Shown here in pieces: positions 1-19,398 of a stretch of DNA of 64,000 nucleotides (position 1 is the stretch's first letter; the number at the start of each line of letters is the position of its first letter). The notes beneath the pieces are model-generated. The model made no database searches. It worked only from the letters and a program-made list of their open reading frames with translations, and was not told where the DNA came from. The position numbers and the translations under genes are program-made. The stretch comes from Tubulanus polymorphus (Eukaryota > Animalia > Nemertea): assembly GCF_964204645.1 (NCBI RefSeq), contig NC_134030.1, positions 15,624,110-15,688,109 on the forward strand, read 5' to 3'.

Positions 1-2
1 AA

Positions 3-2623
3 AAATATGATTACAAAAATAAAGTACCATTTGTAATATATGGAGATTTTGAATCATTAAATAAAGAATTAACAGATAAAGATAGAAAAGATATATATTA
101 TAAAAGAAAGAAATTAAATCTAATGAAAGTGATTATTCAGAAGAACCACCAAAAACAAATACTATTAAAAAGATTCATCAATCAGCTGCAGCTTTCGGGT
201 TATATATTAAATCTAATTATCCAGAACTAATTGAAAGTGAATATTATAATTACAGAAATGAAAATGTTATCAATCATTTTTGTGACTTATTAATTGAATA
301 TGAAATAAAATTTAATGAAAAGTTGAATAAAAATATAGAAATAATTATGACAGAAGAAGATAAAGAAGAATTTGAGTTTGCAGATAAATGTTATTATTGT
401 GAAAAGATATTTAATTATAAAGATAAAAAAGTAAGAGACCATGATCATTTGAATGGAAAGTTTAGAGGCGCTGCACATGAGAATTGTAACTTACAAGCTA
501 AGAAAATTAACTTTGTACCAGTTATATTTCATAACCTATCAGGATATGATGCACATTTATTTATCAAACAGCTATGTCATAAAATAGAAGAAATCAATAA
601 TGAAATAGAAATATTAAATTCAAATAGATCAAAAGATAAAATACCAACTTATAAATTTAGAATGTTAGCTAAAACATCTGAGAATTATATATCATTCCAA
701 TTTGGTTGTCTAAGATTTATAGATTCATATAGATTTTTAAATAGTTCATTAGATAACTTATCAAAATCATTAGTTGATGATGAATTGAAGATATTAAAAG
801 AATATTACCCAAATAATGATGATTTTCAATTAATGAGATATAAAGGCGCAATTCCATATTCTTTCAATAAAAATCATAATGATTTTAAAATAACTGAATT
901 ATTGAAAGAACAATTTTATGATGAATTAAAAAATGAATATGTTAAAGATGAAGTCTATAATAGAACATTGAATATTTGGAATCATTTCAAAATAGAAAAT
1001 CATGGGCAATTAGTAGATTTATATTTAAAATCAGATGTATTATTATTAACCGATATATTCGAAAGGTTTAGAGATGTAAACCTAAAATATTTCAATATTG
1101 ATCCTTGTCATTGTTATTCATCACCAGGATTAACATGGGATTGTGGATTAAAATTTACAGATATAAAAATGGATTTGTTAACAAATATAGATCAATTATT
1201 ATTATTTGAAAAATCTATAAGAGGAGGTGTTTCAGGTGTATTGGGTGATAGATATTTCAATGTAAATGATAATCCTGGATATAAATTATTATACATAGAT
1301 GCAAATAATCTTTATGGTTGGGCAATGATGGAACCACAACCTTATGGGATGTTTGAAATAACTGAAGTTTTACAAATTGATAAATTTGATTGGAAGAAAA
1401 GAATTCTAGATATTGCAGATGGTTCAGATACTGGTTACTTCTTTGTTGTAGATTTAGAATACCCTGAAAATATTAAATTCAAATCTAGAAATCTAGCATA
1501 TTGTCCCGAACATAAAACTGTTAAACATGAAGAATTATCAAATTATCAAAAAAGAATTAAACCCGATAATCATATTCATACTGAAAAGTTAATGGTAACT
1601 CAAGAAGATACATATAATTATGTAGTACATTATAGAATGTTGAAGTTTTATTTGAGACAAGGAATGATATTAAAAAAAGTACATAGATATATTTCATTCA
1701 GTCAATCTAAATGGTTAAAAAAATATATAGATTTTAATACTACACAGAGAACTAAATCTAAAACTGATTTTGAAAAAGATTTTTTTAAGTTAATGAATAA
1801 TGCATTCTATGGTAAGACTTGTGAAAATATTAGAAATAGAAATGATATTGAGTTAGTTAGTAATGGTAAAAGGATAAGGCATTTACAATCATATCCTAAG
1901 TTTATAGGTAACAGAATATTTGATGAAAATTTAGCTGCAGTTAAAATGAGGAGAACGTCTATTAAATTCAATAAACCTATATTTATTGGTTCGACTGTTT
2001 TAGAATTATCAAAGTTATTAATGTATAAATTTTACTATAACATATTACAACCCCATTTTGGAGAAAAGAATATAGAAATTCTATACTTTGATACAGATTC
2101 TTACATATTAAAGATAAAAACTGATAACATAACTGATGATTTAAAAACATTAAAACATCATTTTGATTTCAGTAACTATCCTAAAAATCATGAATTGTTT
2201 ACCAATGATAATAAAAAAGTTCCTGGGAAGTTTAAGGATGAATTAGGTGGTGAAGAAATGATAGAGTTCATTGGTATTAGATCTAAAATGTATAGTTATA
2301 AAACTAAAACTCATGAAGCTAAAAAGTTAAAAGGAATTACCAAAAGCGTTGTTGAAAAGAATATTAATTTCAAAGATTACATCAATTGTATATTTAATGA
2401 AGAAGTTAGAAAACATAAGATGAAATGTTTAAGATCTGAAGATCATGAAATGTATATTGAAGAAATAGAGAAGATAAGTTTGAATCCATTTGATGATAAA
2501 AGATATATTTTAGATGATGGAATCCACACAGTCGCCTATGGTTGCAATTTAGATGAATATATAAAATTCAAAAGAGAAGAAACAAAAGAAAATGAGATTA
2601 TGAAAAGGATTCTAACGTGTTAA
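3..2623 (+). CDS. polB: Protein-primed family B DNA polymerase (pPolB), 5' part outside window; frameshift near 118-121; EndoVII-like HNH domain inserted in exonuclease domain
   Basis: ExoI YGDFES (frame 3), ExoII FHNLSGYD, ExoIII YLKSD, palm DANNLY, KLMNNAFYGK, YFDTDS, KMY; CYYC..RDHDH..GKFRGAAH..CN insertion. Confidence 0.95.
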
Positions 2624-2651
2624 TCAATTTCAATAAAAATTTGTATAATAA

Positions 2652-2993
2652 ATGGAGAGTAAACAAGTACACAGTGAATTCTTAGATAGAATTAAAGATA
2701 CTTCAAGCGTCAAATCTGTAGATTATAAATTTAAAAAACTAACTGAGTTAACAATTCACAAGAAATATCTAATTACAAATATTGTTACAGTTACTAATAA
2801 ATATGGAGATAAATTAGTAATTCATTTAGAATATGAAGGATTAAAAGGAAATGAATATAAATTCAGAACTTATTTACCAGATAGATTTCATAGATTATCA
2901 AGTGAAGATCTAGAAGAATTATGTTCTGGAGATTTCTATTTCGTATACAAAGGTAAGAATGAAAAAGGGCACCATGAAATAGATTTCGAATAA
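2652..2993 (+). CDS. Small putative OB-fold / ssDNA-binding protein
   Basis: FKKLxEL..KY.I....TNKYG.K.V..L....TYLP.RF beta-rich pattern next to pol; function inferred. Confidence 0.45.
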   Translation: MESKQVHSEFLDRIKDTSSVKSVDYKFKKLTELTIHKKYLITNIVTVTNKYGDKLVIHLEYEGLKGNEYKFRTYLPDRFHRLSSEDLEELCSGDFYFVYKGKNEKGHHEIDFE

Positions 2994-3010
2994 GAAAATA
3001 TGTAAAATAA

Positions 3011-3755
3011 ATGGTAGAATTAAAAGAATACAGAATATTTGTTGATTCTAGAAAACTTACAAATTATAAATCACATAATTTATTAGTACAATTAGATAGA
3101 GAATTTAAGAATTGTATAGATTTAAAATTAGTAAATATAAGTTTATGTAATTCTTTTCATAATATATCGGATAAAAGTTTTGATCATAGAGACTTTTTAA
3201 TTCATATTAGAAATATAAATAAATGGTTTCAACTAATTTTAAAACCAGGATTATATAATTTAGATACATTAGCACAAGAAATTAATCGGAGAGCACGATT
3301 AAAACTTAAAAGTGAAGATAAATTTTCAATTAGATTTATAAAAAGTGATAGTTCTAATAAAATTAAAATAAAGTTAGATGATGAAAACAAACATGCATTT
3401 ATGGTAAGGAAACCTTTAGCTAAACTGTTAGGAATTAAACCACAAACTGTTACAGGAAACGTAGACGGTAATTCAAATATAATACCTTTTACACATTTTT
3501 ATATTTATTGCAATTTAATTGACCCAACAAAAACATTTGAAGCAACTAAAGATACAATTTGTAATTCTGGTTTATTAAATATTTTACCATTAAAAAATGT
3601 TAAACAATTTGGAACGCAAATAAATTATAATTTAACAGAATTGTATTCCTCAATTTAATAATTTTAAATTAGAAATAAGAAATCATAATGGATACTTAAT
3701 TGATTTGAATAACTTTCCTGTAATTTATGAATTAGTTATAAGATGTAAAGAGTAA
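3011..3755 (+). pseudogene. Minor capsid protein (penton, single jelly-roll), frameshifted near 3641
   Basis: IFVDS..., LxNISLxNSFHNI, FYIYCNLI, LLxILP; C-terminus FNNFKLEIRNHNGYLIDLNNFPV lies in another frame; copy D reads through (AECDFKPCIP), implying a ~14-nt deletion in A. Confidence 0.75.
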
Positions 3756-3772
3756 TTTTTTTCACTATATAA

Positions 3773-4120
3773 ATGAATATAACTGTTGGACCGAGTATAT
3801 GTTTTGGATTTGATTTTAAACGTGAGAAAGAAATGAAATTTAACATGAATGATGTAATAACACATATCAAAAATATTGCATTTTCTAATGAAACAACATT
3901 TGAGTATGAAACAACAATAGATAAAGAAACTTTAAATGTAGAAAAGATTACTGAGTCTTTAAGATTTTATGAATTAGATGAAGATTTTATCATCGATGAT
4001 ATTAAAAACATATTAACCAAAATATATGATAATCATAAAACTAGTAATGAAATAAATGTTGAATTAATCATAAATAAGTTAACTAAATATTTTGATGATA
4101 GTAATTTTTTTGATAAATAA
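3773..4120 (+). CDS. Conserved hypothetical protein (115 aa)
   Basis: Homolog at 52260-52601; TAAATG start. Confidence 0.75.
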   Translation: MNITVGPSICFGFDFKREKEMKFNMNDVITHIKNIAFSNETTFEYETTIDKETLNVEKITESLRFYELDEDFIIDDIKNILTKIYDNHKTSNEINVELIINKLTKYFDDSNFFDK

Positions 4121-4333
4121 ATGAGTGATAATAAGTGGATAATAACTGGATTATATAATGGCGCATTACTATCAGTTGGAACGGTTGGTTATTCAATGGT
4201 ATTAAAAAAAGTATTCAAAATGGGAAGTGTTAATGTTGATATAAATGATATTTTAAAGTTAACATTAGCAGTTACTTTATCTAATTTAACTATTGATTAT
4301 TTGGAAAAACAAAAATATATTCCTCCCATATAA
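4121..4333 (+). CDS. Small hydrophobic/membrane protein (70 aa)
   Basis: Two hydrophobic segments; homolog at 52035-52259. Confidence 0.7.
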   Translation: MSDNKWIITGLYNGALLSVGTVGYSMVLKKVFKMGSVNVDINDILKLTLAVTLSNLTIDYLEKQKYIPPI

Positions 4334-4357
4334 ATGCATAATTTTTTTGCTAAATAA

Positions 4358-4780
4358 ATGGCTTCTGCAATTATAACTATTATAGGATCAGCAATTGTTA
4401 ACGCTTTAGCATTTACTGGTGGTGGTTATTTATTTAAACATATTGATAAAAATAGTTCATTAGGAGAACAAAGAAGACATAACTTAGCGTTAGAGAAATA
4501 CAATAAAGCTGCAGAAGAATATAGAGAAAAGAGGCAAAACTATATGGATTACATCAATAAAGAATTATATGATCAGAAGATTTCACATAGAGATTTTCAA
4601 TCAGTTGATGATGCAATGAGTTTATATAACGCAGTAACAAATAAAGAAAAATTACATCTATACAAACCTAAATTATCAGATTATTATACCCCAAGTAAAG
4701 AACAACAGAAATATGAAATAATATGGATTTTAGGTGGAACAGTTATTGTTATATTTGTTGCTTATAAATTTACTAATTAG
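4358..4780 (+). CDS. Membrane-associated protein (N-terminal hydrophobic/amphipathic helix, EQRRHN motif, C-terminal TM)
   Basis: ASAIITIIGSAIVNALAFTGG; IIWILGGTVIVIFVAY; homolog in D. Confidence 0.75.
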   Translation: MASAIITIIGSAIVNALAFTGGGYLFKHIDKNSSLGEQRRHNLALEKYNKAAEEYREKRQNYMDYINKELYDQKISHRDFQSVDDAMSLYNAVTNKEKLHLYKPKLSDYYTPSKEQQKYEIIWILGGTVIVIFVAYKFTN

Positions 4781-4799
4781 TAATTTTTATTCTAAATAA

Positions 4800-5234
4800 A
4801 TGGAAGATAAAGTTGATAGTATTGATATTATTCCTCATGATATAAATAAAACTAAATTAAAAACATATTTAGAAAAACAAATATTAGAATTTGAAAGTGA
4901 CTTAAAGATAAAAAAGAAAAAATATTTAAAAAGTAAAATTATATATTATTTGATTATAAGTGGTTCGGTTACAATTAGTTCTGTAATAACATTTCTAGCA
5001 ATATTCAGCCCATTAACACCTTTAGCTATATCAATTGGTGTGTTAGGATTAAGTTCAAGTGTTTTAACTGGTATCAGTTCAAAATTAAATATAAAAAGTA
5101 ATAAAGAAAAAATAAAATCTTATATAAAAGAAATTAATAAATTAAAGAACACACTAGATTATATAATAAGTTTAAATGGTCATATAACAGTTGAAGAACA
5201 AGATAAATTATTAAAAGAATTAATAAATTATTAA
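4800..5234 (+). CDS. Two-TM protein flanked by coiled coils (144 aa)
   Basis: Central ~45-aa hydrophobic hairpin; intact homolog at 51134-51568. Confidence 0.78.
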   Translation: MEDKVDSIDIIPHDINKTKLKTYLEKQILEFESDLKIKKKKYLKSKIIYYLIISGSVTISSVITFLAIFSPLTPLAISIGVLGLSSSVLTGISSKLNIKSNKEKIKSYIKEINKLKNTLDYIISLNGHITVEEQDKLLKELINY

Positions 5235-5250
5235 TTTTTTAGTTATATAA

Positions 5251-6579
5251 ATGGGGTTTCCAAAAGCTTTCCAATATAATAAATCAATTAAATATAATAT
5301 TCCGGCAATAGATTTTAAGAAAAATATTATATATAGAAATATAGTTTTAAATTCATTAACTAATTTAGAAATTTATGTTACTGAATCACAGTTTTTTATT
5401 TCTAAAATGGAAAATATATTTAATACATATGAAGTTACTTTTACTCGAGATGAATATCATATATATAAAGTAAAATCTAATATGAAATATTGGCAGAATC
5501 AATTAAATTTTGCTGTTTATTGTGCAACAACAGGATGTGGAATTAGTTGGAATGATCATTTAAATAACTTAGATAAAAATTTGAAGTATTCTGATTTAAA
5601 ATTAATTCACACAATATTTAGATTTCACTCATATTTTCAAATCAGAATAATATTAAATGAATTAGAATGTCCTTTACCCGGGTCTAAATATTTTAAAGAA
5701 TTAGATAATAATATTAATATATCCAAGTTTTATAAAATATGTAATGAATTTAATATAAATATTAATTCCGATTTCAGAGCGCATGGTAAATTACAAGGTG
5801 TTAGTGAACAGTATGAAATAAAAAGAATTGATTATATGCATAGAATTGGAGCTTATCATAATTATAAAATTGATAATAATAATGGTTGGGTTAATTTCAT
5901 TTTAGAAAATGGTGAAGGTTTTACAAAATCAGGTATACAAAGAATAAATCAATCTATTAGAATTTATTGGATATGTATTTTAGGTGCTCAAGTTGAAACA
6001 AGATCACCGATAATTGGAAATTTGAATACATCATTCGATACACAAAAACAATTTAAAGTTTTATTTGAAGATTCAATTCATAATGATAAAAATAGATCGA
6101 TTCCAGAAAACATTATAAGATATCAAAATTATTTAGATAAATCTCATGTAAGACTTAATTATTGTATAGGCCCTGATCTATTAATTATTTCTAATGATTT
6201 AGTATTAAAGATGGGAAATATAATTGGTTATAATAATCTAATTAAAACTGCAACAATAAATAATTCATTTGGGTTAAATGATATAAATAAAAAGATTATT
6301 ACTGCTCCAAAATTAATGGAAGGTGAAAAAAATAAAAAACACATTCAATCAACTGAAACTAAAACTAAGAATATTAAATTAAATAATGATTCTAAAATAA
6401 AAGATTACAATACATCAGAAAATGGTGCCGTACGGCACCCACACGGTGATAATAGAACTGATAAAATTCAACATGATATAATTAAACTAAATGATGATAA
6501 TAAATCCCATGAAAATACTAAATTAGCTATAACTTGTATAGGAATTGTAATCGGAGGAATATTATATTTTAAATTTTAA
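5251..6579 (+). CDS. 442-aa conserved protein with C-terminal TM anchor
   Basis: WQNQLNFAVYCATTGCG, FRFHxYFQ motifs; LAITCIGIVIGGILYF tail; homolog in D. Confidence 0.8.
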   Translation: MGFPKAFQYNKSIKYNIPAIDFKKNIIYRNIVLNSLTNLEIYVTESQFFISKMENIFNTYEVTFTRDEYHIYKVKSNMKYWQNQLNFAVYCATTGCGISWNDHLNNLDKNLKYSDLKLIHTIFRFHSYFQIRIILNELECPLPGSKYFKELDNNINISKFYKICNEFNININSDFRAHGKLQGVSEQYEIKRIDYMHRIGAYHNYKIDNNNGWVNFILENGEGFTKSGIQRINQSIRIYWICILGAQVETRSPIIGNLNTSFDTQKQFKVLFEDSIHNDKNRSIPENIIRYQNYLDKSHVRLNYCIGPDLLIISNDLVLKMGNIIGYNNLIKTATINNSFGLNDINKKIITAPKLMEGEKNKKHIQSTETKTKNIKLNNDSKIKDYNTSENGAVRHPHGDNRTDKIQHDIIKLNDDNKSHENTKLAITCIGIVIGGILYFKF

Positions 6580-6595
6580 TTTTTTTATTATGTAA

Positions 6596-8056
6596 ATGGA
6601 TGTAGAAGGTGGAGAAGATATTCCATTGGATGACATGGGAAATAATAATGAAGGATATATTGATGATGATTATAATGATGCAAAAACTAATATTGATAAT
6701 GATGATGAATCAGCATATAATTCTAATTTAGCAGATAGTGGTTCTAAAGCCCCATCAACAGATGAATTTGATAGAAGAACTAGATCGAGAATAAATCCTG
6801 AAAATGAAAATCAAGGTTTAAAAAAGGAAGATTTAGAAAATATTGGATTTATATATAAGTTTCAAGATGTATTTAAAGATTCTGGATATAATATAAATTA
6901 CAGAGGCGCCAGACTTTTAGTAAATGATTTAAAATATTTAGATGGTGAATATTATTATAAATTGAAAGATGATTATTATATTAATATCTCTTATAAAACT
7001 CAAAATATAATATTAGCAGAATCAACTTTGCTTAAGTTAGAACCAGATAGAATTAAGAGAATAAGTATTAGTAATGAAATAACTGATGTTACACAAGAAG
7101 AAAGAGATAATAATAGAAAAGAATTCAAACAAAGAATTAATGAATTATTTGAAACAATCGATAATAATTTAGAAACAGAAACAACTTCTGAACAGAATAT
7201 AACTTCCAAAACTAGTAAACTTAAATCAAACACTGAAGTTCAAACTGAAAAACTTTTACCGAATGGATTACTTGATGCAACAGATCAAGAAATAGAAGCT
7301 TTAAGTATGTTTTCTAAAAAAACAATTAGAGAAATAATAAGTATACGAAATGACGCCGATAAAATTGCTCGCGAAAAACATATTAGATATAATAAAATTA
7401 AACCTTTAGAAAATAAATTATTTGACACCAGAAAAGAATTAGAACAATTAAAATTAGATAGAGAATTTAAAATTATTGAAGAAATTGAATTTAAAAAAAG
7501 AAATGCATATTTAGAAAAAGAAATTGATGATTTAAAATATAACATAGAATTTCAGAAAGAAAAAATGAAATTATTATTAAAATCATATGATTATTGTATC
7601 AATAGATTAAAAGTTGTTGTTAAAGAGTTAATACTAAAACCAAATTCTGAAATATCATTAAAAGACAGAATAAAATTATTATTTAAGTTTGAAGGAATAA
7701 CAGTTCTTTCAATTCTAACAGCTGTAACTATGTTATTTACAACAATTGGTTTAGCAATATCAAATGCTTTGAAATCTACTCCCACTCCCAATAAACCAGA
7801 TAAACCTCCAGGTAATAATTCTATACAAGATAAAGTTAAAGATGGTTTAAAGAAATTAGCAAAATATTTATGGGAACTATCTAAAAAATCTGCTGCAGCT
7901 TTACCAGGAGTTATTGCTTCAATTGTTGGTTTTATATTGAAATCTGCAGGAAACATTATTAACTTTGCTGCTGAACATATTATTTTATTTTTAATTACAG
8001 TTGTAAGTGCTATTATTTTTGGGTTAGTGAATATGATATCAAAAAATATCAAGTAA
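6596..8056 (+). CDS. 486-aa acidic/coiled-coil protein with multi-helix hydrophobic C-terminus
   Basis: Acidic N-terminus, heptad region, three hydrophobic segments; homologs in B and D. Confidence 0.8.
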   Translation: MDVEGGEDIPLDDMGNNNEGYIDDDYNDAKTNIDNDDESAYNSNLADSGSKAPSTDEFDRRTRSRINPENENQGLKKEDLENIGFIYKFQDVFKDSGYNINYRGARLLVNDLKYLDGEYYYKLKDDYYINISYKTQNIILAESTLLKLEPDRIKRISISNEITDVTQEERDNNRKEFKQRINELFETIDNNLETETTSEQNITSKTSKLKSNTEVQTEKLLPNGLLDATDQEIEALSMFSKKTIREIISIRNDADKIAREKHIRYNKIKPLENKLFDTRKELEQLKLDREFKIIEEIEFKKRNAYLEKEIDDLKYNIEFQKEKMKLLLKSYDYCINRLKVVVKELILKPNSEISLKDRIKLLFKFEGITVLSILTAVTMLFTTIGLAISNALKSTPTPNKPDKPPGNNSIQDKVKDGLKKLAKYLWELSKKSAAALPGVIASIVGFILKSAGNIINFAAEHIILFLITVVSAIIFGLVNMISKNIK

Positions 8057-8101
8057 ACCATGATATCAAAAAATAAATAATTAATTTTTTTTGTTAAATA
8101 A

Positions 8102-9349
8102 ATGAGTGGGAGTTATATAAGTCCTTCGAAGAATCATAGAATATCTAATGCTATTAAAGCAGAAAGATCACATCATATAATTACTCATAACCCTTCAAAT
8201 ATTAATCCCGATGAAACTTTATATGTGAGGATTCCTCGATTAACACAAAATACTTTTTATGTTCCAAATAGTATTTATTTATCAGCCGATATAAAAGTAA
8301 TCGGTAATAATAATAATTATGTTGTTGATAATGTTGGAAGATATTTGATTAAAAAGTTAACAATAAAGATTGGTCCGGAAACAGTTTTCTCATTAGATGA
8401 TTATAATTTATTTTCACATTATAAAGATTTATGGTTAACTAAAGAAAATAGAAATAATATGATATTTCAAGGAATTCAATCAGAAAACCAAAATAAATTA
8501 AGATCAGAAGCTAATAGCGCAATATTAACAAATGATGTAGATAAATTGATAAAAAGTATATATGGAAGCAAATATAAAATTCCATTAGACTTTGAATTGA
8601 TAAATAATAATGCACCTTTATATAAATACGCAATTCAAGAAGATATTATATTTGAGATAACATTTGCTCCTGTAAATGAAATTGTATTATCTAGCGTTAA
8701 TAAAGATATGAGTTATAAATTATCGAATATATGTTTAGAATATGATACAGTAACTGATGAAAATATTTCAAGTATAATTCAAACTAAATATAATCAAGGA
8801 TTTTCATTATTATATGATTATATTGATAAATTTAAAACTGTAACTATTAATGCAAATGATGAAATAATTAATGAGAATATTAACTTCCCTAGAAGATCTA
8901 TTAAAGGTATATTAATATTTTTTACCATTGGAACGTATACTAATGGCGCAATAAATGTTGATAATTATTATAATCCTGAAATAACAAAAGTAGAAATAAC
9001 TATCGAAGGTATAGCGAATAAAATATTTTGTCAAGGAATGAGAATGATTGATCAATGGGTAGAAATTAAAAAACATTTTATGAATGAAAAAGTGAAATCA
9101 TCTGAAAATTGTAATATTAATCAAATTGATTATTATACCGGTAATAAATATGCATTATGGTTAGATTTTAGAACAACAGAAGATAATTCATTACATGGTT
9201 CTGGAAAAAAACTACAAAATACAAAAGATGGAATACAATTATTCATGACAAAGAATAAAGGAATCAAAAATTTTAAAATGCACATTTATATTATATCTGA
9301 CGCGCAATTAAATATTGTAAATTCACAATTAGATAGTGTTATGTATTAA
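8102..9349 (+). CDS. Major capsid protein (double jelly-roll)
   Basis: 415 aa beta-rich; THNPS.I....LYVRIP.L....YVP.S, GRxLIKK, ICLEYD, ALWLDFRT..D..LHGSG; size and position fit Polinton-like MCP. Confidence 0.8.
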   Translation: MSGSYISPSKNHRISNAIKAERSHHIITHNPSNINPDETLYVRIPRLTQNTFYVPNSIYLSADIKVIGNNNNYVVDNVGRYLIKKLTIKIGPETVFSLDDYNLFSHYKDLWLTKENRNNMIFQGIQSENQNKLRSEANSAILTNDVDKLIKSIYGSKYKIPLDFELINNNAPLYKYAIQEDIIFEITFAPVNEIVLSSVNKDMSYKLSNICLEYDTVTDENISSIIQTKYNQGFSLLYDYIDKFKTVTINANDEIINENINFPRRSIKGILIFFTIGTYTNGAINVDNYYNPEITKVEITIEGIANKIFCQGMRMIDQWVEIKKHFMNEKVKSSENCNINQIDYYTGNKYALWLDFRTTEDNSLHGSGKKLQNTKDGIQLFMTKNKGIKNFKMHIYIISDAQLNIVNSQLDSVMY

Positions 9350-9381
9350 AATTTTAACTTTAATAAAAATATATATAATAA

Positions 9382-10407
9382 ATGGAAGGAGGTAAAGTAT
9401 ATGAAAGAATCAAAGCTGATAAAGAAATCAATGATAATTTGTATTATGTAATACCTTATAAAAGAATAAATGAATATATTGGAACATTTTTATTAAATGA
9501 ATTAAATCAATACAAAGAATATTTAATTGAACGTAATAATAATAAAAGTGGTGTTGTTAATAATAGTGTAATTGATAATAATGTAATACCTACTACATCT
9601 GTAATACCTACTACTACATCTGTAATACCTACTATATCTGTAATACCTACTATATCTGTAATACCTACTACATCTGTAATACCCACTACATCTGTAATAC
9701 CCTCTACATCAAATAATGTAATACCCACTACATCTGTAATACCCTCTACATCAAATAATGTAATACCTTCTACATCTAATAATAAAATAATATTAGATGT
9801 TAGTGAAAATAGAAATTATTGTGGTTATTGTAATGGTGAATTTTCAAACGCTCCATCAAATTGGAATAAACATATGAATACAAATTCACATATTACTAAT
9901 GTTATAGAACGTGTTGGTTTAAGAGAATTTATAGAACACCCATTTAGATATGTTACAAAATTTGTTTCAAATAAAAAAGTAAATGGTAAAGAATTATATG
10001 AAGATTTTTTATTAACAACACCTAATAAAGATGAATTAGATTTAACCGATGCTAATGAAATATTAGGATCAAATATTGTAAATGAAATATTAGGAGCAAA
10101 CACTAATAAAGATGATAATGAAAATGATACCATACAGCACCCACATGGTGATATAGTTACAGATAAGCATATTGATAATAAAGATTCTATAAAACTTAAA
10201 GTAGAAAATAATAATAAATTTGATTGGATGAATAAGCATAACAATGAAACAACTATTGATGATTTGGTAAAAAAGGTGAAAAAGGTGAAAAATAATAAAC
10301 CAATTATTTATGAAGATACGGTAGAGCATTTGAATAAATTGTTAGGGTCTGAAAGTGATTATAGTGAAAGTGATTCAGAAAGTGATTATCTAACACTCAA
10401 AAAGTAA
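9382..10407 (+). CDS. Low-complexity protein with VIPTTS repeats and C2H2-type zinc finger
   Basis: CGYC...KHMNTNSH; TAAATG start. Confidence 0.7.
   Translation: MEGGKVYERIKADKEINDNLYYVIPYKRINEYIGTFLLNELNQYKEYLIERNNNKSGVVNNSVIDNNVIPTTSVIPTTTSVIPTISVIPTISVIPTTSVIPTTSVIPSTSNNVIPTTSVIPSTSNNVIPSTSNNKIILDVSENRNYCGYCNGEFSNAPSNWNKHMNTNSHITNVIERVGLREFIEHPFRYVTKFVSNKKVNGKELYEDFLLTTPNKDELDLTDANEILGSNIVNEILGANTNKDDNENDTIQHPHGDIVTDKHIDNKDSIKLKVENNNKFDWMNKHNNETTIDDLVKKVKKVKNNKPIIYEDTVEHLNKLLGSESDYSESDSESDYLTLKK
9583..9777 (+). repeat. Coding 18-bp tandem repeat (GTAATACCYACTACATCT)
   Basis: About ten imperfect units encoding VIPTTS/VIPSTS. Confidence 0.9.
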
Positions 10408-10459
10408 TAAAGGTTGAAAATTGTATAAAATAATAGTAAATAAAAAAGGGGTTTTTAAG

Positions 10460-10620
10460 TATTAAGGTATCTAATAGGGTATTAGGGTATGTATCAGGTA
10501 TTAGGGTATCTAATAGGGTATCAGGTATTAGGGTATCAGGTATTAGGGTATCTAATGGGGTATTAGGTATTAGGGTATCTAATGGGGTATTAGGTATTAG
10601 GGTATCTAATACATAGGTAT
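10460..10620. repeat. GGTATTAG/GGTATC repeats with TATTAG-GGTAT-CTAATA mini-hairpins at the convergence of the two gene blocks
   Basis: Seen directly; shorter version at 19853-19960 in B. Confidence 0.85.
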
Positions 10621-10628
10621 ACAAATAG

Positions 10629-11243
10629 TTATTTTATAAATTTATATTCATATGGAAATTGTAATCTCATAAGTAATTTGGAACCTTTATTATTCTTTAA
10701 TTTATTCATATATTCATCATGTAATTCAGGAGGTATAATTTGATTTTCTTCCAATGATTGTTGCATAGATTTTCTATCTTTGTTGTAGAATAAAACTAGA
10801 AATCTTATATTCTCTCTAAAATCTTTCACAATTGAATTATATTTCTGATTTAAAACCCAAGTTGTTATCCCAAAATGTCTACCAGAGAAAGCTAAATAAC
10901 ATAACTCACTTTCTCTAATTTTAGAATCATGTAAATTTGCGCAATCATCGATAATAAATAATGTATTAGATCCTTTATAAATATCTAATGCAATTTTTAT
11001 ACAATTATCTAAATTATCTTTCACTGTTTTAGAATTTAATATAATAAACTTTTTATCTTTAAAAACTATATCTCTATTATACGTTTCATTCATTTCATAA
11101 GTTGGGCAGAATAATATTATATTATCAAAATGATTCTTATAAATAGTTTCTAATAAATATAATATGAAGTGTGTTTTACCACAATTTGTAACTCCAGTTA
11201 TTAACATATTATGAGGTTCAAATATAAATAAATCTTTATTCAT
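10629..11243 (-). CDS. Genome-packaging ATPase (A32/FtsK-HerA-like)
   Basis: Walker A GVTNCGKT, Walker B LFIIDD, GRH motif, Q sensor, REN. Confidence 0.93.
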   Translation of the reverse strand: MNKDLFIFEPHNMLITGVTNCGKTHFILYLLETIYKNHFDNIILFCPTYEMNETYNRDIVFKDKKFIILNSKTVKDNLDNCIKIALDIYKGSNTLFIIDDCANLHDSKIRESELCYLAFSGRHFGITTWVLNQKYNSIVKDFRENIRFLVLFYNKDRKSMQQSLEENQIIPPELHDEYMNKLKNNKGSKLLMRLQFPYEYKFIK

Positions 11244-12324
11244 TTATTCTTTTAATTTTACTAGATAAAATCCATTCATTAAATTTATCATCATATCCTT
11301 TATATTTCACCAAAGAATACTTTTTTCCTTTAAGAGTTTTTGTTTTCAATACTTTTTCTATTTTGTATTCTATTTCATCTGGATTTGGTACTAATGATAA
11401 TTCTTGTTCATAAAAATAACCTAATATTTCTTCATCTTTTAAATCAAACAATTTATAAACAAATGGTTTAGTTAATATTATCTTTTTAATTTTAAATATT
11501 TCTTCTGTAAAATTAGGGGTATAACCTTTATAAAATGTATTTCGATATTTAGAAATTCTAACATGTTGTCCTATTTTAAATTTAGGTTCTCCAAAATCAT
11601 GTGTAACAAACGCACCATATAAATTATTCCAAACTATTTCTGAATTTTCTTCTTTTCTAGCTTGTATAGGTTTCATATTTATAGAACTATGTTTAGAATT
11701 ATTATAACCTTTCACTAAATCATCTAACACATCGATATATTTGTATGTTTCATTAGCGGTGAAATATTTCCACATTCTAGTTTTCAATGTTTTATTAAAT
11801 CTTTCTATAACAGATGCTTTTTTATCTGAATGTGTTGAAAAATATTCTACATCGTTATCAGTTAATAGTTTTTTAAAATGTTTGTTATAAAATTCTTTAC
11901 CTTCATCAAATTGTATCTTATCTGGAATAGCTTCTTTAAATATTAATTTGAAAGAATTTGTAACTTCTATACCAGTTTTATTTTTAATCGGGATACTCCA
12001 TGCGTATCTACTGAATATATCTATAACATTTAGTATCCAAAAATATCTTTTGTTATATTCTTCTAAGTTCTTCATGTCAATTAAATCTGCTTGCCATTGT
12101 TGATCGATATATGAAACCATTACTTTTCTTGTTAAATATTTTTTATCCATCTTTTTATGAATTTGATATGTGGGTTGATTTTGTAACCATGATTTTAATT
12201 CACTATATTTTATATTGCTATTATCAGATTTAATTTTATTCCATAATTCTGAAACGTTAGAAAATGATACTTCACTTTCTGGGTTGTAATATAACGCTCT
12301 TAAATATTGTTCTTTTTTCATCAT
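11236..12324 (-). CDS. int: Retroviral-like (rve) integrase with C-terminal chromodomain
   Basis: WQADLIDM, VIDIFSRYAW, FDEGKEF, ERFNKTLK (DDE); YKIEKVL..VKYKGY..FNEWI chromodomain. Confidence 0.95.
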   Translation of the reverse strand: MMKKEQYLRALYYNPESEVSFSNVSELWNKIKSDNSNIKYSELKSWLQNQPTYQIHKKMDKKYLTRKVMVSYIDQQWQADLIDMKNLEEYNKRYFWILNVIDIFSRYAWSIPIKNKTGIEVTNSFKLIFKEAIPDKIQFDEGKEFYNKHFKKLLTDNDVEYFSTHSDKKASVIERFNKTLKTRMWKYFTANETYKYIDVLDDLVKGYNNSKHSSINMKPIQARKEENSEIVWNNLYGAFVTHDFGEPKFKIGQHVRISKYRNTFYKGYTPNFTEEIFKIKKIILTKPFVYKLFDLKDEEILGYFYEQELSLVPNPDEIEYKIEKVLKTKTLKGKKYSLVKYKGYDDKFNEWILSSKIKRINE

Positions 12325-12327
12325 ATT

Positions 12328-12711
12328 TTAATCCATTAATAATATTTTAGATTTATTTTCATTTGATTTATGATTTGACTTATTTTCTGGTATAATAGGT
12401 TTATTGTCATTGGAATCATCTTTATCATCAGATTTGAATTTTGATTTATATATTACACCGGATAATATAATAACTGTTACTAATCCAATTGTAATATATA
12501 AGTAATTATTTCTTCCACTATTAGAATTAGATGGATTATTATTTGAATCAATACTACCGTGTGGGTGCCGTACGGCATCATCGGGTGATTCATTTATATC
12601 AGTTAATTTCTTTTTCTTAGCTTTTTTTAATTCTGAAGATCTTTTACCTAATTCTCTTGCCCATTTAATTTGTTTCTCTGATCTAGCCTTTTTCTTAACT
12701 CCATCACTCAT
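12328..12711 (-). CDS. Basic single-TM protein (127 aa)
   Basis: Lys/Arg-rich N-terminus, YLYITIGLVTVIILSGVIY TM. Confidence 0.7.
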   Translation of the reverse strand: MSDGVKKKARSEKQIKWARELGKRSSELKKAKKKKLTDINESPDDAVRHPHGSIDSNNNPSNSNSGRNNYLYITIGLVTVIILSGVIYKSKFKSDDKDDSNDNKPIIPENKSNHKSNENKSKILLMD

Positions 12712-13309
12712 TTATTTTAGTTAATTTTTGTTCTGATTCATTTTCTGTTTCACTGTTTGGTTGTAGTACATCTGTTTCGTTCTTACCTGATTTATATTCC
12801 ATAGGCTTGATATTCGAAAATGTTATAACTCCAGTAGAAATTAATGTCATAACCGATCCTAATTGAAATAAAGTATATCCAACCCATTTTTGTAATTCAG
12901 TCATAACTAAATAGTCATTTTTCAAATCATTATATAATTTATTTTCATCATCAATTGGTATTAACTGGTTACATAACTTAGAATAACATTTGACAATACC
13001 ATCTGAAATAGAATCATTTATTCTAGCTAATCGAGCTTCTTCATAAATCTTAAAATATTTTATTACTTTTTCTTTATTCATATTATCTAATTCTTGAAAA
13101 GTTATTGTTTTACCAATAAACTCTTTAGTTTTTCCACTCGCAATCAATAGTTCTAGATGATGCTTACAATATAAATAGTATTCATAATCAATATTACTAT
13201 CAATTTTATTATCACATTTAGTTGCCACATTATCATTATCATCTGTTAGACCTAAATCTTCCAAAGTTTTTTCAACTTTAATATTATTCTTATTCGATTT
13301 CTTTGACAT
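12704..13309 (-). CDS. Conserved hypothetical protein (201 aa)
   Basis: Close homolog at 25345-25907. Confidence 0.75.
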   Translation of the reverse strand: MSKKSNKNNIKVEKTLEDLGLTDDNDNVATKCDNKIDSNIDYEYYLYCKHHLELLIASGKTKEFIGKTITFQELDNMNKEKVIKYFKIYEEARLARINDSISDGIVKCYSKLCNQLIPIDDENKLYNDLKNDYLVMTELQKWVGYTLFQLGSVMTLISTGVITFSNIKPMEYKSGKNETDVLQPNSETENESEQKLTKINE

Positions 13310-13558
13310 TTATATTAGAGAAAAAAAGCAAAAAAAATATTATAAGTATTCTTCAAATGATACTAGATAGTTAAAGTTAAAGAACTCTAGTATTGACTAC
13401 TGATACTAGCTATTTGAATTTATAGAATTTCTATTCGGATCTATTCAAAATATAAAGTATTCTCTTTTTGAAAAGAAAATATTAAAAATATAATAGAATT
13501 CGCTAGCTAGTTGAAGTTATTGTTTTTTAAATACTTTTTATTTAAAATCTATTATTCT

Positions 13559-14221
13559 TTAACCACTCATTAAAGACTCAACGTATTGTTCATTATGTGT
13601 TGAATTCCATAATTCAATAAATTTTTTTACTTTTTCCAGTTGATTCAAATATAACTGTAAATCTATTTTATTAGATTTGATTTGATTTTCTTTCTTTTCT
13701 AAAGGTCTTAGATTCTTCCAATTCCAAATAAGTTTTTTATTGTATTCATCGTTCATGTTAAATTTAGATATTGGTAACACGTGATCAATATGGTAATAAT
13801 CCCCATAATTATATATATTCATTTTATCATCGAATTGAAATATAATCCATGATTTGAGAAATTCATCTGAACAACCCAACAAATTAGATAGTGTTTCTGA
13901 ATGTGTTTCTTTGTTGAATAATTGTGTTAATCTAGACCGTAAACATTGTTTCAATCTAAAATTAAGATCTGTTTGATATCTTTCTCTCATATATTCTGTC
14001 ATATAATCATTATAAGATTCTCTATTATCTTCTCGATATTGTTTAGTATATAGTTTAATGCAAGTTTTACAGTAATATTGAAAACCATCTTTGCTAGTCT
14101 TACGCTTACTAAATTCTGTTAATGATTTATCTAATTCACATTTAGAACACTTCTTGTAATATATGTTTATAACGCCAGTGTTATTTGTAATATTGATAGT
14201 TTGTGGTTGTTCTGGTTCCAT
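13559..14221 (-). CDS. HNH endonuclease with N-terminal CxxC..CxxC zinc ribbon
   Basis: KKCSKC...KDG...CKTC; LLGCS; HIDHVLP; NLRPL...EN..KSNK. Confidence 0.85.
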   Translation of the reverse strand: MEPEQPQTINITNNTGVINIYYKKCSKCELDKSLTEFSKRKTSKDGFQYYCKTCIKLYTKQYREDNRESYNDYMTEYMRERYQTDLNFRLKQCLRSRLTQLFNKETHSETLSNLLGCSDEFLKSWIIFQFDDKMNIYNYGDYYHIDHVLPISKFNMNDEYNKKLIWNWKNLRPLEKKENQIKSNKIDLQLYLNQLEKVKKFIELWNSTHNEQYVESLMSG

Positions 14222-14416
14222 TTATTATACATATTTTTTTACTAAATTGGTTAATATTTTATAATCCTCTTCCATTTCTTCAACCAACGTCATCCTTTTT
14301 CATTCCTCGCTGCTTTTGGATAAGTCAGTTTCAATTCCTTGATATCTAAATAATACCACTGGGCAAAAACGCTCGGGTGAGAGCGAGTTGGCTTCTGCGC
14401 ATGCGCTCATTATAAT

Positions 14417-15345
14417 TGTCAAACAATTTATCATTTTAACTGTCAAACAATTTATCATTTTAACTGTCAAACAATTTATCATTTCAACTGTCAAACAATT
14501 TATCATTTTAACTGTCAAACAATTTATCATTTTAACTGTCAAACAATTTATCATTTCAACTGTCAAACAATTTATCATTTTAACTGTCAAACAATTTATC
14601 ATTTCAACTGTCAAACAATTTATCATTTCAACTGTCAAACAATTTATCATTTTAACTGTCAAACAATTTATCATTTCAACTGTCAAACAATTTATCATTT
14701 CAACTGTCAAAAAATTTATCATTTTAACTGTCAAACAATTTATCATTTCAACTGTTAAACAATTTATCATTTCAACTGTCAAACAATTTATCATTTTAAC
14801 TGCTAAACAATTTATCATTTCAACTGTCTTATCATTTCAACTGTTAAACAATTTATCATTTTAACTGTCAAACAATTTATCATTTCAACTGTCAAACAAT
14901 TTATCATTTCAACTGTCAAACAATTTATCATTTTAACTGTCAAACAATTTATCATTTTAACTGTCAAACAATTTATCATTTTAACTGTCAAACAATTTAT
15001 CATTTCAACTGTCAAACAATTTATCATTTTAACTGTCAAACAATTTATCATTTCAACTGTCAAACAATTTATCATTTCAACTGTCAAACAATTTATCATT
15101 TCAACTGTCAAACAATTTATCATTTCAACTGTCAAACAATTTATCATTTCAACTGTCAAACAATTTATCATTTTAACTGTCAAACAATTTATCATTTCAA
15201 CTGTCAAACAATTTATCATTTCAACTGTCAAACAATTTATCATTTTAACTGTCAAACAATTTATCATTTCAACTGTCAAACAATTTATCATTTCAACTGT
15301 CAAACAATTTATCATTTTAACTGTCAAACAATTTATCATTTCAAC
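14417..15345. repeat. 24-bp tandem array ACTGTCAAACAATTTATCATTT(T/C)A, ~39 units
   Basis: Seen directly; one truncated unit near 14828. Confidence 0.97.
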
Positions 15346-15401
15346 AGTCTATTAGATATTTAAATCATTTAACTCAATTCAATAATTATAATGTAGAATT
15401 G

Positions 15402-16023
15402 TTACTCTTTACGCCAGTTTTTATATTTAATTGTTTCATAATGCTTTGATTTATGTGATTTTAAATATTTACCTCCGCAATAACAATGCACTTTTTCATT
15501 AGGATTGAATTTTCTAAATTCATCATCTAAATTACATTGAACTGCAATATCTTTATAAGAATTATTATTATCTAATTCACATTGAATTCCAATATTTGAT
15601 GAATTTTCATTATAGATAATTTGTTTATTATCAAAATTGAAATAATATAATTGTCTTTTTTCAATTCTTAAGTTAATCAAATCATTGTAATCTTTTGAAA
15701 GTATTATATCATCATTTCTTTCATTGAAAGGAGTTTTAAGAATATTAATTATGTTTTCATCTAAAGTTCCTTTAAAATTTAAAACTGTATTGAATACTTT
15801 AGGACTTTTAACACCATTATCAAAAGTATCTACTAGTTCAGTAATTAAATATGTTTCATTTGATAATATTTGATTAATCATAGTTATGTTATCGATTTTA
15901 TAATACCTTGCGGACACTAAATTTGTTGCTGAAATATAATTTTTAATGTAAAACTGTGAAAATGATTTATTGGTTTCTTTTATTTCGATTTTAAAGTTGG
16001 GTTCTTCTTCTTCTGTCTTCATT
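15402..16023 (-). CDS. Hypothetical protein with C-terminal CxC..H..H zinc finger (start probably ATG at 16023)
   Basis: HCYCGGKYLKSHKSKH; homolog 33349-33993 begins at the equivalent Met. Confidence 0.75.
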
Positions 16024-16130
16024 TTACTAACAAAACTTTTATTAAAATGAATCCAACGCATATAAATATAAATATTCAATGATTTATGAATTATTTCACT
16101 CACACTTTACTCACACTTTTTTCTAACGCG

Positions 16131-16180
16131 TAAAAATGAAAAATAAATTCGAGCGTGTGAGAATTTATTTTTCATTTTTA
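16131..16180. repeat. Perfect 20-bp-arm subterminal palindrome, loop GAGCGTGTGA
   Basis: TAAAAATGAAAAATAAATTC / GAATTTATTTTTCATTTTTA. Confidence 0.9.
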
Positions 16181-16291
16181 TGAGTTTTGCGAGTAATTCA
16201 AGTAGAAATTGTAATTATTTTTATGTTTTTCATTTTTTACGAGCTCGACCGTTCGACCTTTGATCTGAAAGCCTATTACCCCTATTACTAG

Positions 16292-19200
16292 CCTGTTATA
16301 AGTGATGAACAACCACCTGATTTTGATGAAATAAGTTTTAGTAATGATAATAAAACAGGCTGTTCGAATATCACGGATACCGGATACCGGACACCTAAAT
16401 ACCGGATACCGGATACCCGAGATTGCGGAGTATATAGCGCATCGGGTCTAATGGTCAGCGGTAAACGGCAGTTCGTGTGAGATCTAGTAGAAGAATAAAA
16501 GGCCTATATTATTTTCATAATACATCGGTATATGCTTTTCAAGTACAGTAGCATACAAATGTTACCGGTATAGACAATTCAAACAGATTTATTGCTTCCG
16601 AGTAATAACACGATTACATACGACAGTCACGGTAACAAACAGTAGACAGAAAATATTTTTTATCATTCTGCCAATTTGAACGGATTACCGAATAGACCGT
16701 TTTGGGCAGAGCTACTGTACAATACAAAATATCTTTATCATTCAGTTTCACGAAGAAGGCCATTTTAATAAAGTTAAGCGTTATTGACGATCTATATTTT
16801 CATGATCTTTAGAATTAAATTTAACATCAGGGTAAATAGTCACTTAGAGGTATGGTAGGTACCGGTATTTGACGAACTGATTTTTGAAGGTTATACCAAA
16901 ACAATTGGTGTCCAGGGGTGTTGATTTTCGACGATCGCCATGGACTCAATAATTTCATTTTTAGGGACATCGTGATTGAGAATGAAATGTAGACATATCG
17001 TCCAATAAATAGAATATACCGAATATTCTCCGTCATAAAATAAGAAAACGAATTTTAATTCTTTGTTTGTAAATACTTGTATTTCATTGGTGTTCAGCTC
17101 AACTATTCCATCGTAAATCAACAAATACAAAATGTAGAGATCTTTAAAACAAACTTTATTAGAAGAAACTTTAGAACTGCCAGACTCGCTTATGGCCTTC
17201 AAACTTGAGATATAGGGCCTAGCAGTACTCAGCCCTATTAATGAAAGGATTTTACAGAAAAACCAAAAGGGCCACCAATACATATCCATCACCAGTGAAG
17301 TAAGATAATAAAAAATGAATATAACGTTTAACTTCACCTAACCAAAGAAAAACAGTATTCAGAAAAAAATATGTATAATATTGAGATCGATGATGACACT
17401 TAAAACGTGAGAGAAGGCTGTAATCAGGCTAGCATTAAGACAAATAAGTTGGTTAGCCGCTGTAACAATTTGACATAAATGATTGTATGTCGCGGCAGTA
17501 CTACTTACAACAACACGGAAACGAATCCTTAGACCCGATGCGCTATATACTCCGCAATCTCGAGTATCCGGTATTTAGGTGTCCGGTATCCGGTATCCGT
17601 GATATTCGAACAGCCAATAAAACAGCATATAATAATAATTTAAATGATGAAGATGATTCTAGTGGGCCTATATTATATGATTATGATGAATTTAAAGATG
17701 ATACTGAAACACGCAAAAAATTTGAAGAATATATGACAACTCACGAAAGGGGAGTTATTAAACCCGTAACATTTAGAAAAGATTTAATGAATAGATTAGA
17801 AAGAACAAAAAACCCTGAATTGAAAGAAGATTTATATTTAATGAAAACTAGAATAACAGATACAATTGTTAACGAATTATTACCAAAAGTTGTAATAGAT
17901 GAAATTGATACAGAAGGTGTTGTAGAACAAATTGAAAAAGATGATCCACATTTCATGAATAATTTAGAATTTGAAAATGATGCATGGTATTATAATCTTG
18001 AATTAAATGGTAAAACTGAATCAATACAATTATCTAGAATGGGTCAAGAAAATATTGAACCTGGAATGCGTGCAAGATCTTCAATTGAACGTTCAAAAGG
18101 TGGTAGAGAATTTCTCAGAATTATATGGAATGCACTCGATAGAATAAATGAAGAAGAACCAATTCCTAAAATTGATATAAACAAACATTCACCATTTAAA
18201 AATCCAAATTTAAATCTTACTTATGTTGATCCAGAAATGGAAGAGTATGATGATCGATTAGATAAATTAAGATCTTCAACACCCGAAACATCGAGAAGAG
18301 ATATTCAACAAATTGATAATGATTAGAGTCAATTACAATTAGTAAAACATTTTGATAGCATGTTACATACAATTCATTCATTTGAAGAAGAGATGAAAGG
18401 TGCTTTAGATACACCCGGTGCTTAAACTGAAATAAATCGAATACAATCTTTACTAGAAAAAGGATTATTTGATTTAAATGATGATGAATTAGAAGCATTT
18501 CCTGAACAAGCGCGTAGAGAAATTAAAGGTATGCAAGAATCAGCTGATAAAATTGCGCATGAAAAAAGTAAAAGAGATATTAAAATTAGATTTTTAGAAA
18601 AAGATAGAACTGATAAAATTAAAGAAATAGAACAAGTAAAATTAGATAGAGATAGTAAAGTTATTGAAGAAATTGAATTTAAAAAAACGAAATGCATATT
18701 TAGAAAAAGAAAAAGATGATTTAGAATATAACATAGAATTACAGAAAGAAGAAATTAAATTATTATTAAAATCATCTGATAAAAATAAAGAAATAGAACA
18801 ATTAAAGTCTGATTTAGAACGACAAGTAATTGATGAAATAGAATATAGGCAAAAAGAATTACGTTTAGAAAAAGAAATTAATAATTTAGAAGTACAGAAA
18901 GAAGAAATTAAATTATTATTAAAATCATATGATTATAATATTAATAGATTAAAAGTTATTTTTAAAGATTTGTTGATAAAACCAGATTCTAAAATATCAT
19001 TGAAAGATAGAATAAAATTATTATTTAAGTTTGAAGGAATAACAATTCTTTCAATTCTAACAGCTGTAACTATGTTATTTACAACAATTGATTTAGCAAT
19101 ATCAAATTCATTAAAATCTATACCTACTCCCAATAAACCGGATAAACCCCCGAATGATAATAATTCTATACAAGATAAAGTTAAAGATGGTTTAAAGAAA

Positions 19201-19398
19201 TTAGCAAAATATTTATGGGAACTATCTAAAAAATCTGCTGCAGCATTACCCGGAGTTATAGCATCAATTGTTGGTTTTATATTGAAATCTGCTGGGAATA
19301 TTCTTAACTTTGCTGCTGAACATATTATTTTATTTTCAATTACAGTTGTAAGTGCAATTATTTTTGGGTTAGTGAATATGATATCAAAAAATAAATAA
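16292..19398 (+). pseudogene. Homolog of the 486-aa coiled-coil/TM gene, split by the MITE, with stops/frameshift and an internal duplication
   Basis: PVISDEQPPDFDEISFSNDNKT|AYNNNL across the MITE; C-terminus near-identical to 6596-8056. Confidence 0.8.
16358..17615. mobile_element. Non-autonomous DNA transposon, MuDR/Mutator-like
   Basis: ~90-bp TIRs GGCTGTTCGAATATCACGGATACC...; 9-bp TSD AATAAAACA (16349-16357, 17616-17624); GGATACC subrepeats. Confidence 0.85.

Follow-up and report, generated by a model that had tools for sequence, protein, structure and literature searches.

Core genes and the TAAATG start motif

The stretch of DNA analysed here (64,000 nucleotides of Tubulanus polymorphus, Nemertea; contig NC_134030.1, positions 15,624,110 to 15,688,109 of the forward strand; hereafter the window) opens with copy A (1–16289) of a Polinton-like element, in which 16 intact open reading frames (ORFs) lie downstream of the protein-primed DNA polymerase B (pPolB) gene and together account for 88% of positions 347–16061. 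The first 16.3 kb are AT-rich, with a GC content of 0.22–0.26. Pfam searches of copy A identified DNA_pol_B_2, Pox_A32 and rve with a chromodomain. The first (E 4e-16) marks the C-terminal part of pPolB (104–2623, plus strand), the 5′ part of which lies outside the window and the frame of which is broken near the window start. The second (E 3e-12) denotes an A32-like packaging ATPase (10629–11243, minus strand), and the third an integrase (11236–12324, minus strand) in which acidic catalytic-type residues are invariant.

The ORF at 8102–9349 (plus strand) was assigned as the major capsid protein, of double jelly-roll type, from a structure model and from comparison by hand with the alignment in supplement 4 of PMC4028283. 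The model (pLDDT 89) adopts the double jelly-roll fold with a Foldseek E of 2.5e-16 and superimposes on the PBCV-1 capsid with a Z score of 27.9 and an rmsd of 3.4 over 356 residues. The corresponding Z scores were 19.0 for Sputnik and 17.6 for mavirus, the capsids of nucleocytoplasmic large DNA viruses (NCLDV) ranking above both. Virophage capsid models from Pfam gave no match in the window, although the same models match a further locus, L176. The capsid protein has 927 database relatives, one of which (P0046, 54% identical) is labelled as a Bartonella protein and is probably host DNA in a bacterial assembly.

The gene starts of the element share the motif TAAATG, which is present at 14 of the 16 starts of copy A as against 34 of the 576 other ATGs of the element (Fisher p ~1e-14); in the decayed copies of the window, 11 of the 14 starts checked carry it. 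Pox-like promoters had been among the signs listed in the original prediction for this DNA, and the signal is stronger than that prediction could show. Retroelement ORFs in the window, most of which do not begin at true starts, carried the motif in none of eight cases, and it was likewise absent from the starts of the protease/PLA2-type contigs L163 (0/11) and L175 (0/8).

A partial metagenome scan gave 239 confirmed matches, from which 80 related loci were retained, and the motif survey covered 40 loci with at least three scorable starts. TAAATG was found at 30 of 33 starts in six close loci. Twelve distant loci of higher AT content had it at 16 of 50 starts, and four of them, in which every start carried it, account for 15 of the 16. 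It was found at none of 197 starts in GC-rich loci (21 of the 22 loci with GC of at least 0.4, comprising the distant ones and L042; L006 was classed as close), where position −3 is occupied by A in 51%, G in 24% and T in 13% of cases. The motif is not driven by composition, given that it is present in L058 (GC 0.39; 5/5) and L006 (GC 0.44; 3/4) yet absent from the AT-rich L024 (GC 0.26; 0/5) and L020 (GC 0.28; 0/3). In a quick capsid tree of 63 rows, it marks two subclades (11/11 and 9/10 rows) and requires 3 changes, compared with 17.2 when shuffled.

In the window's clade, a T-run lies 6–7 nt ahead of TAAATG at the capsid gene and at most membrane-protein genes, as in the promoter-like site before the capsid gene (8080–8104, plus strand), where a T-run and a 6-nt spacer precede the motif. 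An A-run is found instead at the ATPase, penton, 341-aa and 127-aa genes, and for most genes the T or A class is conserved across the window, L001, L002 and L004. Vaccinia late promoters are described as consisting of a T-containing core, a spacer of 5–7 bp and TAAAT(G/A); those of the intermediate class are given as bipartite and containing TAAA (PMC5294985, in part). The layout of T-run, 6–7 nt and TAAATG fits the late promoters of vaccinia. The T-run was also considered as a trans-splice acceptor and rejected, most sites being without AG. In L043, L052, L054 and L055, the capsid and 486-aa genes start head to head with two TAAATG motifs ~7–9 nt apart, a spacing that leaves no room for separate untranslated leaders; head-to-head gaps in the GC-rich relatives are likewise very short. 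The TAAATG start is a strict, ancient, poxvirus-like motif and constitutes the new element of the finding. A motif of this kind in animal polintons is not described in the literature searched, to which most subscription papers, Repbase and bioRxiv supplements did not belong, and nothing bearing on it appears in the available portions of PMC8502044, 10.1101/2024.03.23.586382 and PMC13215967.

Further genes, copies and termini

Two nuclease domains were recognized. An Endonuclease VII/HNH domain is inserted in pPolB (350–496, plus strand; Pfam Endonuclease_7, E 4e-5), and the same insertion occurs in L021, L072, L024 and L014. An intein remnant had been proposed for this element; what is present is at most this domain, and no splicing domain was detected by Pfam on six-frame segments or by a motif scan. 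The second nuclease is a stand-alone 220-aa HNH protein (13559–14221, minus strand) with N-terminal zinc-binding motifs, from a family common in large DNA viruses. It matches phrog_1035 at E 4e-20, and 294 viral-contig stretches were matched, the best 80 at 27–41% identity, in agreement with its earlier description as large-DNA-virus-like.

The ORF at 3011–3658 (plus strand) is likely the minor capsid protein (penton), judging from sequence comparisons: its ESM Atlas scores are 0.96–0.97, the clusters concerned contain DUF5901 in 12% and Adeno_Penton_B in 18% of members, and its profile matches ORFs of four viral contigs at E 1e-8 to 1e-13. Downstream on the plus strand lie a conserved 70-aa protein (4121–4333; 26-member family), related to the next ORF by an hhalign match of 95%, and that 140-aa conserved protein itself (4358–4780), which has two hydrophobic segments and is hydrophobic in 27 of 31 members. 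These are followed by a 144-aa protein with two transmembrane (TM) segments that is weakly SLATT-like (4800–5234; E 0.0045, below cut-off), a 442-aa core protein with a C-terminal membrane anchor (5251–6579), and a 486-aa core protein with a charged middle and three C-terminal hydrophobic segments (6596–8056; 22/22 members). On the minus strand are a 127-aa single-TM protein (12328–12711) and a 201-aa core protein (12704–13309; 1267 representatives at E≤0.001) with a C-terminal hydrophobic segment in most relatives. Five ORFs exceed the hydropathy cut-off of 1.6, and the 201-aa protein, which scores 1.45 here and so falls below it, passes in 24 of 30 family members, in line with the six or so TM proteins originally counted. 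Given that hydrophobic segments are conserved family-wide in six proteins, the term membrane-rich applies to the whole family. When alignments of the capsid, the penton candidate and the 442- and 201-aa proteins were used for HMM searches of PDB sequences, nothing was matched.

The remaining ORFs are accessory or narrowly distributed. They encode proteins of 113 aa (2652–2993, plus strand; 1 of 80 loci), 115 aa (3773–4120, plus strand) and 219 aa (15402–16061, minus strand; start without TAAATG), together with a low-complexity 341-aa protein with a Cys/His cluster (9382–10407, plus strand) confined to close relatives. Short tandem repeats with a TAGGGTAT core (10441–10617 and 19836–19962) lie between the convergent 341-aa and ATPase genes, and a 24-nt tandem array of ~40 copies at 14400–15350 is not found in copy C.

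The right end of copy A is a true terminus, given that a ~45-nt terminal repeat motif lies at 16245–16289 and 1952 genomic reads exit at 16289 into unlike flanks (agreement 0.39). The 45-nt motif was found at 16289, 27933, 28118, 32622, 58148 and 60049. The occurrence at 58148 is identical to that at 16289 in 30 of 45 positions and lies ~250 nt ahead of the first ATG of copy D. These related motifs sit on different copies and no single copy in the window has both ends, hence no target-site duplication is readable. In genomic run X6, 21,427 of 12.9 million reads fall on 1–14250 at ≥95% identity, and 14 kb of the element takes 0.17% of sampled bases; the family has many copies and was active in recent times. 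A 186-bp foldback at 27933–28118, with the family terminal motif at each end, resembles a miniature non-autonomous derivative. The terminus is read ~10 times more deeply than the interior in the genomic run, which implies many short derivatives and suggests that such miniature forms are numerous.

Decayed relatives of copy A occur at 18.5–21.2, 25.3–28.1, 33.3–34.0 and 48.1–58.1 kb, amid gypsy and BEL/Pao retrotransposons, the latter being mostly metazoan, and these neighbours make an animal host likely; nested remnants of both types occupy 36166–47709. Copy B (18459–21160) is a deleted fragment with the 486-aa gene, capsid start, ATPase and integrase end, and copy C (25343–28118) is a right-hand fragment with its terminus at 28118. 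Copy D (48091–58148, minus strand) is decayed and runs from the left terminus through pol, the N terminus of which carries zinc-finger and vOTU-like motifs, to the start of the capsid gene. A 1826-nt inverted duplication (57637–59462 and 62175–64000; 99.9% identity) includes the left terminus of copy D and is either a very recent event or an assembly artefact.

Copies A and D had been combined in the original prediction into one complete gene map of ~18 kb. They are 73–87% identical in DNA and 64–78% identical in pPolB protein, and the interval between pol and penton holds one 113-aa ORF in copy A but zinc-finger ORFs and a broken gene resembling VLTF3, the poxvirus late transcription factor, in copy D. 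Because gene content differs, the two copies do not form one map, and their summed length of ~18.0 kb is kept as a length estimate. The VLTF3-like gene of copy D (54226–54564, plus strand), which is not in copy A, was recognized by Pfam Pox_VLTF3 at E 4e-6 (27 bits, cut-off 25). The zinc-finger ORFs of copy D lie at 53319–54027 (plus strand), and the first ORF of this set also starts at TAAATG. Among relatives, an intact VLTF3-like gene was found in L072 (5749–6387), where gene starts are TATATA-rich and lack TAAATG, and a deoxynucleoside kinase (dNK) gene in L002 (10343–10981).

Such decay raises the question of whether the start motif is a relic, inherited from an ancestor that depended on a large virus, with the present copies being nuclear transposons or inert. 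Most copies in the window are decayed or deleted, the VLTF3-like gene of copy D is broken, and the excess of short derivatives implied by the terminal read depth points the same way. By contrast, TAAATG is retained across capsids that are only ~33% identical, and copy A keeps its 16 ORFs intact, both of which indicate selection until recently; a relic is accordingly considered quite unlikely.

Lineage and absence of a maturation protease

The absence of a recognizable maturation protease, as originally proposed, was examined with a profile built from four proteases encoded beside related pPolBs, each held-out member of which was recovered at E 1e-25 to 1e-29. With this control-tested profile, no adenain/Ulp1-type protease was found in the six-frame translation of the window (best E 0.96) or in the 80 related loci (3335 segments, 430 kb; best E 2.2), of which 12 are at least 10 kb and most are partial. 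A broader six-sequence profile had the same outcome, recovering the L176 homolog at E 6e-22 and nothing in the window. Pfam alone gave two weak matches among 91 ORFs for such proteases; its poor detection of them makes Pfam negatives weak by themselves. A protease-integrase fusion was observed at L173:2740-4248, an IMG/VR contig that also carries a homolog of the window's 220-aa HNH ORF and TAAATG at 7/7 ORFs.

The 442-aa protein, with its invariant Cys and His, was the best candidate for a hidden protease and was rejected as such. Its model (pLDDT 86) is helical, is not papain-like and resembles no known fold: no Foldseek match was obtained at E≤0.001 in BFVD or the PDB, the best VIA Z was 3.5, and ESM Atlas scores were below 0.9. 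The listing of no papain-like or other fold leaves room for a new enzyme, and Cys91, Cys96, His126 and Cys164, which are invariant, are possibly a metal site or a sign of such an enzyme. The pPolB N terminus of copy D, by contrast, retains vOTU-like Cys and His motifs, as do three of the four relatives that align there, so it is only the maturation protease that is missing. The vOTU label is this analysis's own reading of the available part of PMC11161782.

Across the family, the capsid, ATPase, likely penton and integrase are shared together with the 442-, 486-, 201-, 140- and 70-aa proteins and the two-TM and one-TM proteins, in shuffled order. In four loci (L016, L033, L034 and L079) this capsid module is paired with another kind of replication ORF, and in L016 (9970–13596) helicase-type AAA domains stand in place of pPolB. 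Given that the family is not one clade in the pPolB tree, which is mosaic, pPolB was not used for placement. The family ATPases form one separate clade (support 99), apart from those of protease- and PLA2-bearing polintons, in a fast tree with a small reference set of 14 contigs, and no ORF was found to be a papain-like maturation protease. Queries of IMG/VR with the capsid, ATPase and integrase returned no relatives in word-based scans, which are weak for absence.

The closest known elements are Polinton-3_NV and N1/N1A_NV of Nematostella vectensis, grouped with cnidarian and bivalve polintons. Residues 27–95 of the window capsid and 30–98 of the Polinton-3_NV capsid are identical at 34 of 69 ungapped positions, counted by hand from the printed alignment, and share C-terminal motifs as well. 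Table S1 of PMC4028283 (2014) records capsid and ATPase as present in Polinton-3_NV and the protease as "−", and the available part of that paper gives its capsid as the best match to PgVV. Cnidarian and bivalve elements are placed outside Maverick-Polinton groups 1 and 2 (PMC11296320, PMC10120064 and bioRxiv 10.64898/2026.06.19.733378, each in part). Both capsids are ~412–415 aa long, both elements have the ATPase and lack the protease, and Polinton-3_NV measures 16.6 kb against ~18 kb here; the penton was scored absent there in 2014, whereas it is likely present here. This comparison covers the printed capsid and table entries of Polinton-3_NV, not its DNA or full gene list. The element very probably belongs to the protease-less Polinton-3_NV lineage. 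Given that this lineage was already listed as protease-less in 2014, the element is not a new system or family, although it is protease-less and membrane-rich as the original prediction had it.

Canonical Mavericks, or adintoviruses (groups 1 and 2), have in common with this element a pPolB that bears a vOTU-like domain, an rve integrase, an ATPase, a double jelly-roll capsid and, in all likelihood, the penton. Canonical Maverick ends are AG...CT, and these are likewise counted as common. The element differs from them in having no adenain or PLA2, a separate ATPase clade and another conserved set of membrane proteins. Mavirus and the endogenous mavirus-like elements of Cafeteria share pPolB, rve integrase and many integrated copies with it, and mavirus, in the available part of the source, uses a late promoter of its helper. 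Mavirus differs, however, in having a maturation protease and a dissimilar capsid (Z 17.6, versus 27.9 for PBCV-1), and its activation and protective effect have been shown experimentally, whereas the present element is known from sequence alone.

Polinton-like viruses (PLVs) offer two further comparisons. Gezel-14T and PgVV, as far as the accessible text describes them, have a related capsid and no maturation protease, and their promoter motif is also that of their helper; they differ in algal host, in TVpol with tyrosine recombinase (here pPolB with rve) and in the mimivirus early motif AAAATTGA (here TAAATG). Entomopoxvirus-associated PLVs are animal-associated and proposed poxvirus hyperparasites, and one of their capsid lineages adjoins Polinton-3_NV, but they encode an adenovirus-type protease and in some cases lack the integrase (PMC11296320, in part). 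No promoter or motif analysis of these PLVs was found in the main text of PMC11296320.

Transcription of the element and its possible helper

The original prediction had treated its several signs as independent support for a virophage life. According to the parts of the sources available, HNH insertions are frequent in polinton pPolBs, and virophages such as mavirus encode a maturation protease whereas PLVs lack it (PMC4642659). Protease loss is thus typical of PLVs, and neither it nor the HNH domain within pPolB says anything on lifestyle; only the promoter signal and the VLTF3-like gene, which that prediction had missed, bear on the question. Given that 14 of 16 starts lie at a poxvirus late-promoter motif, the element may well be transcribed by machinery borrowed from a larger co-infecting virus. 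That its genes are transcribed by a poxvirus-type RNA polymerase taken from such a large DNA virus, which would make the element an endogenous virophage-like parasite, is a reading to which we give an even chance.

Several findings are counted in favor of this reading. Copy D and L072 carry VLTF3-like genes and L002 a dNK gene, and none of the element ORFs was recognized as belonging to an RNA polymerase family (Pfam on ORFs and six-frame segments). The capsid of the lineage is nearest to that of PgVV/Gezel, which the accessible text presents as a proven helper-dependent PLV sharing the promoter motif of its helper. Gezel, mavirus and Sputnik are all expressed via promoters shared with the helper (10.1101/2022.07.28.501842, in part), and insect PLVs have been found within entomopoxvirus occlusion bodies (PMC11296320, in part). 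The presence of TAAATG in L173 indicates that the motif crosses capsid lineages, which fits a shared transcription environment.

Under the proposed scheme, TAAAT would act as the transcription initiator, and slippage of the polymerase on its AAA would yield a short 5′ poly(A) leader abutting the AUG, as for vaccinia post-replicative genes. Genes with a T-run (for the capsid and most membrane proteins) and genes with an A-run (for the ATPase, the penton and the 341-aa ORF) would belong to two temporal promoter classes. A freed linear copy would undergo protein-primed replication, and the terminal protein would be released by the vOTU domain; the six membrane proteins may form a membrane-containing particle, filled by the A32 ATPase with no maturation protease involved; and insertion of new copies would fall to the integrase, guided by its chromodomain. 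A TAAA-type initiator with slippage is also described for cytoplasmic linear elements of yeast (PMC6831550, in part), and in the available text these elements derive from polintons. For these reasons the helper could be, instead of a giant virus, a linear plasmid-like element of the cytoplasm that encodes an RNA polymerase, as the yeast pGKL elements do. No such element was seen in the window, and none is known to us from animals; a helper of this kind is regarded as highly improbable.

A number of observations weigh against borrowed transcription from a large virus. The integrase and the 219-aa ORF of copy A start without TAAATG, two genes switch upstream class among close relatives, and the second TAAATG subclade shows no T/A split. 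Searches via relatives of the HNH and dNK genes identified no helper virus, the nearest HNH viral contigs being 27–41% identical, and the 81 viral loci fetched with these two genes carried TAAATG at 30 of 790 ORF starts. L173, one of 18 pPolB-related viral contigs, has a protease together with the motif at all seven starts, which uncouples the motif from protease loss. Dependence on a helper is not readable from family membership, because the large GC-rich branch possesses these core genes but not the motif. Coral polintoviruses are reported as transcribed in ordinary samples (PMC11131425, in part). High copy number is more easily explained by autonomous spread, and 10 of the 14 window sites, counted by eye, overlap AATAAA, which may serve the upstream gene as a host poly(A) signal.

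The last two points lead to the principal alternative, in which the element, whether a Polinton-like virus or a self-synthesising transposon, is autonomous and relies in the nucleus on host RNA polymerase II (Pol II) for its transcription, TAAATG being a lineage-specific compact signal. The signal might have arisen, for example, by fusion of the upstream gene's AATAAA with an A-rich start context, as the 10 of 14 overlaps would allow, or as the site of an element-encoded VLTF3-like or zinc-finger factor. However, most sites in L043, L058 and L031 lack AATAAA yet retain TAAATG. The triplet preceding ATG in motif-bearing loci, including GC-richer ones, is TAA rather than TAG or TGA, so an in-frame stop alone is no explanation. 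GC-rich relatives with the same core genes show a Kozak-like context, a point in favor of autonomous expression; the T at −3 of the motif, on the other hand, is opposite to the preference of these relatives (13% T). A TATA-like element directs Pol II to start downstream of itself, and one abutting the ATG would place the start downstream of that ATG. High copy number with many different flanks, the existence of PLVs without protease (PMC4642659, in part), the description of TsV, of a large PLV group, as nuclear and lytic (bioRxiv 10.64898/2026.06.19.733378, in part) and the expression of coral polintovirus genes without a known helper (PMC11131425, in part) are all consistent with autonomy. 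Taken together, these points make an autonomous element a real possibility, though a doubtful one.

Borrowed transcription can be stated in a more specific form, in which an animal genome would harbour the element as the endogenous virophage of a poxvirus-like large DNA virus; it would mimic the two post-replicative promoter classes of that helper, form a membrane-containing double jelly-roll particle with no maturation protease and predict a pox-like virus still to be found. This form is plausible but falls somewhat short of an even chance. Host protection would be a further, unsupported step; that the many integrated copies serve as an inducible antiviral defence of the host is unlikely.

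It has long been asked whether any animal Polinton makes particles and whether it needs a helper virus. With a strict poxvirus-type initiator at almost all of its genes, this element makes that question testable and provides a sequence handle for finding the helper. Some branches of the family have the motif and others do not, a contrast in which helper-dependent and autonomous lifestyles can be compared as they occur in nature. The conserved set of membrane proteins and the 442-aa protein without fold match may define an unstudied, protease-free form of virion assembly. If the helper reading is true, the promoters of this element would point to a pox-like virus, as yet undiscovered, that belongs to this invertebrate lineage.

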